Positions 1 to 4,456 of a stretch of 4,790 nucleotides of DNA are shown in pieces (position 1 is the first letter of the stretch; each line of letters begins with the position of its first letter). The notes under the pieces are model-generated. The model did no database searches. It saw only the letters and a list, made by a program, of their open reading frames with translations, and had not been told where the DNA came from. Source of the stretch: a virus (lineage: Duplodnaviria; Heunggongvirae; Uroviricota; Caudoviricetes); IMG/VR virus record IMGVR_UViG_2693429601_000018; one strand, 5' to 3'. The position numbers and the translations under genes are program-made.

Positions 1-1045
1 TAATACTGTAAAAATATCCAGTTGTGAGTTAATCAACGCCGACTGCCTGGAATTTATCCGGTCGTTACCCGAAAATTCTGTTGACCTGATAGTCACGGAC
101 CCGCCGTACTTTAAAGTGAAGCCTGAGGGCTGGGATAACCAGTGGAAGGGCGACGATGATTACCTGAAGTGGCTGGACCAGTGTCTGGCGCAGTTCTGGC
201 GGGTGCTGAAACCTGCCGGAAGTCTTTACCTGTTCTGTGGTCATCGCCTGGCATCTGATATCGAAATCATGATGCGTGAACGCTTCAGTGTGCTGAACCA
301 TATTATCTGGGCGAAGCCGTCCGGACGCTGGAACGGATGCAACAAGGAAAGCCTGCGGGCGTATTTCCCCGCCACAGAGCGCATTCTGTTCGCGGAACAT
401 TATCAGGGGCCGTATCGTCCGAAAGATGCCGGGTATGAGGCGAAGGGCAGGGCACTGAAACAGCATGTGATGGCCCCGCTGATTGCTTACTTTCGTGATG
501 CGCGCGCTGCCCTGGGGATAACGGCAAAACAGATTGCAGATGCCACAGGAAAGAAAAACATGGTGCCGCACTGGTTCAGTGCCAGTCAGTGGCAGCTACC
601 GAACGAAAGCGATTATCTGAAATTACAGTCGCTGTTTGCCCGGGTGGCAGAAGAGAAACATCAGCGCGGGGAACTGGAAAAGCCACACCACCAGCTGGTC
701 AGCACATACAGTGAGCTGAACCGGCAGTATACGGAACTGCTGAGTGAATATAAAAATTTGCGGCGGTATTTCGGTGTGACGGTGCAGGTGCCGTACACCG
801 ATGTGTGGACGTATAAACCGGTGCAGTACTATCCAGGGAAACATCCGTGCGAAAAACCGGCAGAAATGCTGCAGCAGATAATCAGCGCAAGTAGTCGTCC
901 TGGTGATCTGGTTGCGGATTTTTTCATGGGGTCGGGTTCAACGGTAAAAGCGGCGATGGCACTGGGGCGTCGTGCGATTGGTGTTGAGCTGGAGACCGGA
1001 CGTTTTGAGCAGACAGTCAGGGAAGTTCAGGATTTAATCGTTTGA
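1..1045 (+). CDS. DNA N6-adenine methyltransferase, beta-class (motif IV before motif I); 5' end lies upstream of the window
   Basis: The frame of the listed ORF 116..1045 stays open back to nt 2 with no in-frame ATG, so the true start is upstream. Translation from nt 2 gives ...INADCLEFIRSLPENSVDLIVTDPPY (DPPY motif IV, nt ~98-109) and, near the C-terminus, DLVADFFMGSGST (FxGxG AdoMet-binding motif I, nt ~910-950). The order IV...I with ~260 aa between them is the beta-class amino-methyltransferase layout. Stop TGA at 1043-1045. No restriction endonuclease partner is visible in the window. Confidence 0.9.
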   Translation, partial: NTVKISSCELINADCLEFIRSLPENSVDLIVTDPPYFKVKPEGWDNQWKGDDDYLKWLDQCLAQFWRVLKPAGSLYLFCGHRLASDIEIMMRERFSVLNHIIWAKPSGRWNGCNKESLRAYFPATERILFAEHYQGPYRPKDAGYEAKGRALKQHVMAPLIAYFRDARAALGITAKQIADATGKKNMVPHWFSASQWQLPNESDYLKLQSLFARVAEEKHQRGELEKPHHQLVSTYSELNRQYTELLSEYKNLRRYFGVTVQVPYTDVWTYKPVQYYPGKHPCEKPAEMLQQIISASSRPGDLVADFFMGSGSTVKAAMALGRRAIGVELETGRFEQTVREVQDLIV

Positions 1046-1094: not shown

Positions 1095-1170
1095 GGCCCT
1101 TTAGCTCAGTGGTGAGAGCGAGCGACTCATAATCGCCAGGTCGCTGGTTCAAATCCAGCAAGGGCCACCA
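1095..1170 (+). tRNA. ileZ: tRNA with CAU anticodon, Ile2 (lysidine)-type, usually auto-annotated as tRNA-Met
   Basis: Cloverleaf folded by hand: acceptor GGCCCTT/AAGGGCC (7 bp), D-arm GCTC-AGTGGTGA-GAGC, anticodon arm AGCGA-CTCATAA-TCGCC (anticodon CAT at 1128-1130), T-arm GCTGG-TTCAAAT-CCAGC, discriminator A and encoded CCA (1168-1170). Closely resembles E. coli ileX-type tRNA-Ile2 as I recall it; the symbol follows the phage 933W naming from memory. Confidence 0.9.
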
Positions 1171-1179
1171 TATCACATA

Positions 1180-1256
1180 CCGCCATTAGCTCATCGGGAT
1201 AGAGCGTCAGCCTTCGAAGCTGGTTGCGCGGGGTTCGAGTCCTCGATGGCGGTCCA
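1180..1256 (+). tRNA. argN: tRNA-Arg (anticodon UCG)
   Basis: Acceptor CCGCCAT/ATGGCGG (7 perfect bp), D-arm GCTC-ATCGGGATA-GAGC, anticodon arm TCAGC-CTTCGAA-GCTGG (anticodon TCG), variable loop TTGCG, T-arm CGGGG-TTCGAGT-CCTCG, discriminator T and encoded CCA (1254-1256). Symbol assigned only by gene order (ileZ-argN-argO) recalled from Stx-phage literature. Confidence 0.88.
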
Positions 1257-1269
1257 TTATCTGTACCCT

Positions 1270-1346
1270 GCGTTGTTAGCTCAGCCGGACAGAGCAATTG
1301 CCTTCTAAGCAATCGGTCACTGGTTCGAATCCAGTACAACGCGCCA
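1270..1346 (+). tRNA. argO: tRNA-Arg (anticodon UCU, reads AGA/AGG)
   Basis: Acceptor GCGTTGT/ACAACGC, D-arm GCTC-AGCCGGACA-GAGC, anticodon arm ATTGC-CTTCTAA-GCAAT (anticodon TCT), variable loop CGGTC, T-arm ACTGG-TTCGAAT-CCAGT, discriminator G and encoded CCA (1344-1346). Symbol by gene order from memory. Confidence 0.88.
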
Positions 1347-1386: not shown

Positions 1387-1582
1387 AAATGTCTCACAAT
1401 TCAGACGGTTGACAGTTGTCTGTTTTGCGGGGAGTTTGTTAAAAGAAACTGGCATGGTGAATCCCCCTGTGCGGAGGGGCAATCAGCGAGTAGGTATATG
1501 GGATAATCGCGGATTCAGGTGCTGGTACTGAATTCACCGGGAGGCACCCGGCACCATGCAATGGCACATAGCGCCACTCTCC

Positions 1583-1620
1583 AGCCCCTCTCCGGAGGGG
1601 CTGTTTATATTGATTTTGTC
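1583..1620 (+). terminator. GC-rich hairpin with an interrupted U-rich tail; terminator-like or RNA 3'-end structure
   Basis: AGCCCCTC (1583-1590) pairs with GAGGGGCT (1595-1602) as an 8 bp stem around loop TCCG, followed by GTTTATATTGATTTTG. The T-tract is interrupted, so intrinsic termination is uncertain. Confidence 0.35.
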
Positions 1621-1637
1621 AGATGTGAGTAAACTGC

Positions 1638-1973
1638 TTATGGACTTTGTTGTTTTAGCCCATAAGGACATATTTGCAGAGTGCAACGGTTATTAAAGCA
1701 TTCATTCAATACGTTATCTGTATTTGTAGGGCATTCCTGGCTGTTTTTGATTAAATTCCAGAATGTTTTATTGAATGGTACTACGTTGTAAATGGTTACA
1801 GGTAGCACTTTGTTATTGAGCATGATGCCTGTGTGAGTCAGTGTAAATATACTTTCAGGAGGTAAGAAAGCATCCGATTGATACCAGATTATTAATTTTA
1901 TTTTACTCCATATGACTGAAAAAGATATTCCGCATGATGGCTGGATAACTGTATCAATCACAATCCACTTCAT
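1638..1973 (-). CDS. Hypothetical protein (111 aa) in the AT-rich island; possible moron gene
   Basis: Minus-strand ATG at 1973 preceded by AAGGAA with 5 nt spacing; stop TAA at 1640-1638. It is the only long ORF in a ~32% GC segment where stop codons should be frequent. Six of 13 Ile codons are ATA. Four Cys fall in the C-terminal 35 aa ([26 protein letters not shown]). No motif I recognise. Confidence 0.3.
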
Positions 1974-2233
1974 TTAGTTTCCTTGTTTATGCCTTGCTGG
2001 TGATGTTCTGAAAAGTATAAATGATATTTTTGATTGTAAACCATAGAGCAGAATTATTTTTCTGATGTTGTTTATTGTTTATTTAAATGCAGGGTGGTTT
2101 ATATCTCGTCTTGTAGTTTATCCATGCATATCTGCTTGATGATGAGGTTTTTATTTAAGGTATGGTTTTGTGTTTTTTCTGTATTACATGTCAGGTATTT
2201 TAAAGAATCATTTTTCAGATGGTGGAAAGAACC

Positions 2234-4240: not shown

Positions 4241-4456
4241 ATGTACCAGATGGAAAAAATCACAACAGGTGTGTCATACACCACGTCAGCGGTGGGAACG
4301 GGCTACTGGTTCCTGCAGTTGCTGGACAGGGTTTCCCCGTCTCAGTGGGCGGCGATAGGTGTGCTGGGGAGTCTGCTGTTTGGCCTGCTGACGTATCTGA
4401 CTAACCTGTATTTCAAAATCAGAGAGGACCGGCGTAAGGCGGCGCGGGGAGAGTAA
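4241..4456 (+). CDS. S: Class II holin, phage-21 S-type pinholin (71 aa) with dual start (Met1/Met4)
   Basis: [71 protein letters not shown]: two hydrophobic segments and a charged C-terminal tail, closely matching phage 21 S21 as I remember it (...[14 protein letters not shown]...[22 protein letters not shown]). GGGAG sits 7 nt upstream of ATG 4241, with a second ATG at 4250. The listed ORF start at 4163 lies inside the upstream terminator and is rejected. Confidence 0.88.

Follow-up and report, generated by a model that had tools for sequence, protein, structure and literature searches.

The 111-aa open reading frame (ORF) on the minus strand of the window, by which we mean the whole 4,790-nucleotide stretch analyzed here, is the already known and characterized gene iraL. 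At a probability of roughly 95%, we consider it a lambdoid-prophage cargo gene ("moron") that is expressed in the lysogen, has its own promoter and encodes a protein that binds RssB and raises RpoS in log phase. Transcription from its own sigma-70 promoter, starting at position 2006 and running antisense to the late operon, would produce the protein while the uninduced lysogen grows; the predicted PmrD-like barrel (residues 1–78) would bind the response-regulator-like adaptor RssB, and RssB bound in this way would no longer deliver RpoS to ClpXP, so that RpoS and the stress regulon would be up already in log phase. [quoted passage not shown] The copy in the window would be expressed in the same manner.

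The initial annotation had regarded the ORF as a candidate novel gene whose product resembled nothing recognizable. This was contradicted by several comparisons, beginning with the 111/111 amino acid identity to the characterized anti-adaptor IraL of CFT073 (C_RS06710, WP_000871291.1), from which the coding sequence (CDS) differs by one synonymous nucleotide. RefSeq names the homologous ORF "anti-adapter protein IraM" in every full-length match listed, the NCBIfam model for IraM (NF007393; curated whole-protein cut-off of 121 bits) covers residues 1–110 with a score of 162 bits (E=4.7e-48), and the crystallized IraM fragment in PDB entry 8twd is matched at E=9e-32. Identity to K-12 IraM is 59.5%; the published value for IraL versus IraM is 58.9%, from the study by Hryckowian et al. 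(2014) that gave the CFT073 gene the name iraL (PMC4045071). An hmmscan search of Pfam had no hit at E<=1, yet PF11183 (PmrD) appears in precomputed annotations of this protein and of all close homologues, a mismatch that looks like a difference in library version or threshold. The NCBIfam PmrD model (NF011994) was not matched by IraL and was matched by 2 of 49 relatives; we therefore treat PmrD as a relative in fold and IraL as a non-member of the PmrD family.

Table 1. Features of the window, with positions counted from its first nucleotide.
Feature	Position	Strand	Remarks
N6/N4 DNA methylase gene, 3′ part	1–1045	+	349 aa in related loci
tRNA trio, anticodons CAU, UCG, UCU	1095–1346	+	
CAU-anticodon tRNA	1095–1170		76/76 identity to ileZ of phage 933W
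STnc100 prophage sRNA family, strong Rfam match	1423–1612	+	133.6 bits vs gathering score 47
AT-rich cargo cassette, ~620 bp	1613–2233		~33% GC; between tRNAs/STnc100 and nanS-p esterase
iraL CDS, 111 aa, ATG start, TAA stop	1638–1973	−	RssB anti-adaptor, IraM/IraL family
IraL tail, codons 79–111	1641–1739	−	C81-P-x9-C92-x4-C97-x4-C102-P-Y-G; pLDDT 67–83
Predicted PmrD-like beta-barrel, codons 1–78	1740–1973	−	RssB-contacting by prediction; pLDDT 92–98
iraL 5′ UTR, 33 nt, TSS 2006	1974–2006	−	Published 5′-RACE
AT-rich region upstream of iraL	2007–2233	−	227 bp; accompanies the gene as part of the cassette
−10 hexamer TATACT	2014–2019	−	Identical in all 14 loci compared
−35-like hexamer TTTACA	2035–2040	−	15-nt spacer; same as CFT073
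nanS-p-type sialate O-acetylesterase, 618 aa	2234–4090	+	DUF1737 + SASA + DUF6645
Class II holin gene	4241–4456		

The features that had singled out this ORF from the letters alone held up on inspection. It is the sole long ORF of the island, with no other exceeding 70 aa inside the AT-rich stretch, and a chance origin had correctly been judged unlikely, as 12 out of 5000 mononucleotide-shuffled versions of the island contained an ORF of 111 aa or more beginning with ATG. The GC content is 35% for the ORF and 33% for positions 1620–2215, compared with 50–60% for the flanks, and the proposed ribosome binding site, AAGGAA, is present at 1979–1984 on the minus strand, 5 nt before the ATG. We conclude that the ORF is a genuine, conserved gene. 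A hydrophobic N-terminal third had also been described; it does exist, but the residues concerned form the beta-strand core of the PmrD-like barrel in the predicted structure (strands 2–11, 16–22 and 26–33) and not a membrane segment. With a Kyte-Doolittle maximum of 1.44 over 19 residues and a longest uncharged run of 16 aa, the protein has neither a transmembrane helix nor a signal peptide, and we rejected a membrane or secreted protein on hydropathy together with the predicted barrel strands.

The window is the late region of a lambdoid prophage, and the boundaries of the cassette within it were computed by comparison with Stx phages, for which homology stops at about 1608 and restarts at 2233/2234, the latter being the ATG of the esterase gene. 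In phage 933W, the segment between argO and the SASA esterase harbors stxA2B2 (NC_000924.1, 21409–23188); because the same interval holds the toxin genes there, iraL represents an alternative cargo in the stx slot. Both cargoes are located 3′ of Q and the ileZ-argN-argO cluster and 5′ of the SASA esterase and holin, but stx runs in the direction of the late operon and is Q-dependent, whereas iraL is transcribed antisense to it from its own promoter, with a TSS of its own, in agreement with the earlier suggestion that it would be expressed opposite to the late operon and independently of Q. A discrete insertion in a conserved phage backbone, a deviant GC content and an autonomous promoter, three hallmarks of a moron, are found here. 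The exact protein occupies the same slot in 10 out of 10 places retrieved, with neighbors that vary among them: two antiterminator families, a methylase that is present or absent, and an esterase that is full-length or truncated. The prophage of CFT073 shares the gene order (antiterminator, tRNA Ile/Arg/Arg, opposite-strand iraL, DUF1737/esterase, holin, lysozyme) as well as the protein, the −10 and −35 hexamers and the TSS sequence, but differs in having a truncated esterase pseudogene and, nearby, an IS200 and a DUF3927 ORF, neither of which is in the window. A search of the open-access literature found no paper joining iraL, lambdoid and RpoS. One phage hot-spot would thus carry either induction-dependent cargo (stx) or lysogen-expressed cargo (iraL).

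The minus-strand hexamers proposed in the initial annotation as a possible promoter turned out to be the real one, as the published 5′-RACE start lies 7 nt downstream of TATACT. The iraL mRNA 5′-RACE sequence matches the window from 2006 down to 1975 at 31 of 32 bases, and a sigma-70 promoter was assigned to iraL in the same study (PMC4045071). Calling both gene and promoter de novo from sequence alone was accurate here, a result that validates scanning of this kind. A spacer of 15 nt is suboptimal, and a consensus promoter scan was silent on TTTACA-TATACT because it allows spacers of 16–18 nt only. Across the 260 nt upstream, identity to CFT073 is 97% (eight changes), and the differences near the promoter and UTR fall at 2034 (spacer), 2007 (−1) and 1976 (UTR), where the window has A, A and T, respectively. 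The spacer variant seen in the window is the commonest among the sampled loci (9 out of 14). In the iraL copy of E. coli EBJ001 (L017:2711–3306), TTTATA replaces TTTACA; judging by this hexamer, it may correspond to the "−35 point mutation" of JJ1886 iraL2 mentioned in the IraL paper, where doubt is expressed over copies with a −35 mutation (PMC4045071).

A terminator of its own would also be expected of a moron, but no terminator-like site for iraL was found on the minus strand in 1350–2260, and the only hairpin downstream of the gene (1582–1603) has its T-run on the plus strand. IraL was reported to rise in a CFT073 fur mutant. The best match to a Fur box in 2007–2233 was 11/19, which was equalled in 96% of shuffles, and with no Fur box above chance the fur effect is probably indirect. 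Regulatory DNA common to iraL and iraM was considered and rejected, as the two genes align at the nucleotide level within the CDS alone (70.9% over 323 nt); since this homology ends at the CDS edges, the promoters and regulation of the two genes are unrelated.

For structural comparison, we built an AlphaFold2 model from a 49-sequence alignment (mean pLDDT of 89.7). Residues 1–78 are predicted to adopt an antiparallel beta-barrel followed by a C-terminal helix, as expected for the family, in which IraM is a PmrD-like beta-barrel (PMC10844676). Foldseek aligned the model to 8twd_A, the IraM chain of the crystal structure with RssB, over 78 residues with a target-normalized TM score of 0.90 and an rmsd of 1.3 Å, and the next-best structural matches were the PmrD structures 4hn7, 2jso and 2rqx (TM 0.70–0.74, normalized to target). 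PmrD is similar in logic too, being a small protein that binds a receiver domain, but it shares only 14–20% identity with IraL, has PmrA as its partner and lacks the Cys4 tail. K-12 IraM (YcgW) resembles IraL in length class, PmrD-like barrel and four C-terminal cysteines; it is, however, a PhoP-induced RssB anti-adaptor whose gene adjoins the e14 remnant and not a lambdoid late region, while IraL is active in log phase and its two-hybrid contact with RssB is limited to the N-terminal domain. The RssB contacts of IraM differ in how well they are retained. Contact cluster I, which faces the receiver domain (I4, I6, W22, K26, I42), is kept in IraL at all five positions, cluster II, facing the RssB C-terminal domain, at three of five (with T13S and L75I), and cluster III, facing the RssB linker, at two of four (with H63N and I64V). 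Pro66 is kept as well. An intact N-terminal-domain cluster alongside altered C-terminal-domain and linker clusters would fit the two-hybrid result with the N-terminal domain only.

The gene is widespread and well preserved. Of 5426 complete E. coli genomes, 1429 contain the island at >=80% coverage. The assembly index lists the exact IraL protein in 34,862 blocks, and iraL is frequently found in extraintestinal pathogenic E. coli and in Shigella. Across 14 loci, the 596-bp block comprising the gene and its upstream region is free of indels, with an identity of 97.8% or more. Frameshifts or stops at orthologous positions had been named as an outcome that would refute the gene; none occurred in any locus examined, and the ORF is intact in the four loci that had not been picked by protein identity (L001, L004, L016 and L017). 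Between iraL and iraM, dN/dS is about 0.17 (0.16 for the barrel and 0.18 for the tail), an approximate value given a dS of 1.5 that is near saturation. On these sequence comparisons, the ORF and its four C-terminal cysteines are under purifying selection. IraL/IraM homologues are conserved across at least eight enterobacterial genera, with carriers in Escherichia, Salmonella, Citrobacter, Enterobacter, Kosakonia, Klebsiella, Cronobacter and Franconibacter.

The copy in the window could instead be a silent or decaying passenger, an intact ORF left unexpressed through, for example, H-NS silencing or its promoter-proximal variants. A GC content of 33%, as found in the island, is typical of xenogeneically silenced DNA, and the three differences listed above separate the window from the CFT073 allele in which the TSS was mapped; copies with a −35 mutation are also the ones doubted in the IraL paper (PMC4045071). 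Yet both hexamers of the window are those of CFT073, its spacer variant is the commonest, and the selection on the ORF and four cysteines, with no frameshift or stop in the loci examined, speaks against decay, such that we regard a silent copy as unlikely. Much less probable still is that IraL serves mainly as a PmrD-like connector acting on a response regulator other than RssB. The PmrD-like fold, the three PmrD structures as next-best matches and the ability of IraM, as of PmrD, to increase net phosphorylation of its partner would agree with such a role, but RssB binding and RpoS stabilization were demonstrated directly for the identical protein (PMC4045071), and the missing NCBIfam PmrD match and the low identity to PmrD structures count further against it. 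An ORF arising by chance in non-coding DNA of high AT content would be in keeping with the small size and unusual composition and with nothing more; it is set against the 12 in 5000 shuffles, a curated family match, a solved homologue, a dN/dS of 0.17 and homologues in at least eight genera, which leave it a negligible probability.

With the gene itself adding nothing new, the remaining novelty is the conserved Cys4 tail. The protein has cysteines at positions 14, 81, 92, 97 and 102, and the C-terminal four-Cys cluster that had been pointed out is real and better conserved than the literature implies. All 16 close homologues have C81, C92, C97 and C102, and these cysteines are present in 45, 43, 44 and 44, respectively, of 45 full-length distant representatives (clusters at 50% identity, 20–63% identical to IraL). 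By conservation, these four are all within the top six positions of the family, while C14 is not conserved. The usual family spacing is C-x10-C-x5-C-x4-C-P-[YF]-G, which is not a classical CxxC knuckle, and the tail residues between the cysteines vary (mean majority-residue frequency of 0.35 vs 0.45 in the barrel). PmrD-sized relatives end before the tail. The model does not predict disorder in this segment, given the pLDDT values in Table 1.

Structural work on IraM removed residues 79–107, as the full-length protein was proteolysed or insoluble, and termed the tail less conserved and flexible, with cysteine and zinc unmentioned in that context; the tail-less protein still binds RssB (PMC10844676). 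The tail appears to have been overlooked because the solved structure lacks it and because of this description, and our search of the open-access literature for zinc or cysteine in IraM/IraL found nothing relevant, nor any paper in which the function of the tail was assayed. Since tail-less IraM binds RssB, any role of the tail would lie in stability or regulation rather than in binding. Tentatively, and at somewhat less than even odds, we suggest from the motif C-P-x9-C-x4/5-C-x4-C-P-[YF]-G that the tail may bind a metal (Zn or Fe-S) through a Cys4 site, or may act as a redox-sensitive module, governing the stability or activity of the anti-adaptor, which would link RpoS stabilization to metal or oxidative status. 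If metal-bound, the tail could account for the instability and insolubility of full-length IraM in vitro, and it could constitute a new input to RpoS control.

A functional coupling between iraL and the adjacent tRNA-Ile(CAU/lysidine) gene ileZ, which would decode the many ATA codons of the ORF, had also been put forward. The underlying observations are correct: the 13 Ile codons comprise 6 ATA, 3 ATT and 4 ATC, and the CAU tRNA is of the Ile type, as seen from its full-length identity to 933W ileZ (Table 1). The genomic ATA share of E. coli is about 8%, and relative to this assumed value 6 out of 13 greatly exceeds what a typical E. coli gene shows (P ~3e-4); a CAU tRNA is moreover found within 3.5 kb in 12 of 14 iraL loci. 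The ATA fraction is nonetheless the one expected from the third-position composition of iraL (0.43; P=0.51), and K-12 iraM has 8/18 ATA without an adjacent phage tRNA cluster. The iraL loci carry 0, 1, 2 or 3 of the tRNAs nearby, with none in L012 and L016, and the single Arg codon of iraL is CGT, so that neither of the two Arg tRNAs has a codon to read in this gene. The same trio accompanies stx2 in 933W, and its occurrence beside an unrelated cargo indicates that the linkage reflects the phage backbone, not the cargo. Composition, iraM and the tRNA-less loci thus all argue against a need for coupling, which we consider unlikely; a minor translational benefit from ileZ is conceivable, and nothing requires more.

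Elsewhere in the window, the stretch from the tRNAs up to about 1612 is GC-normal. The second and third tRNAs are identical to argN and argO of the Stx2 phage 933W at 74/77 and 76/77 positions, respectively. The CAU tRNA was called as Met by ARAGORN and is annotated as Ile both by RefSeq in homologous loci and by the 933W record, and a terminator-like hairpin (1361–1378) lies 3′ of the trio. The match to STnc100, a family that a 2026 preprint connects with the PasD sRNAs found in pathogenic E. coli, closes with a terminator hairpin at 1582–1603; it is convergent with iraL, at a distance of 26 nt from the iraL stop codon. On the opposite strand, RefSeq places a partial "hypothetical protein" pseudogene at 1442–1567 (equivalent to L001:6093–6218) in several genomes, which is probably an annotation artefact on the sRNA gene. 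The DNA methyltransferase gene is carried by some iraL prophages and is missing from others, including that of CFT073. For the nanS-p esterase, RefSeq uses the start at 2234 and not the in-frame upstream ATG at 2219; the gene is full-length in the window and cut to a DUF1737 fragment in CFT073 and several other iraL loci.
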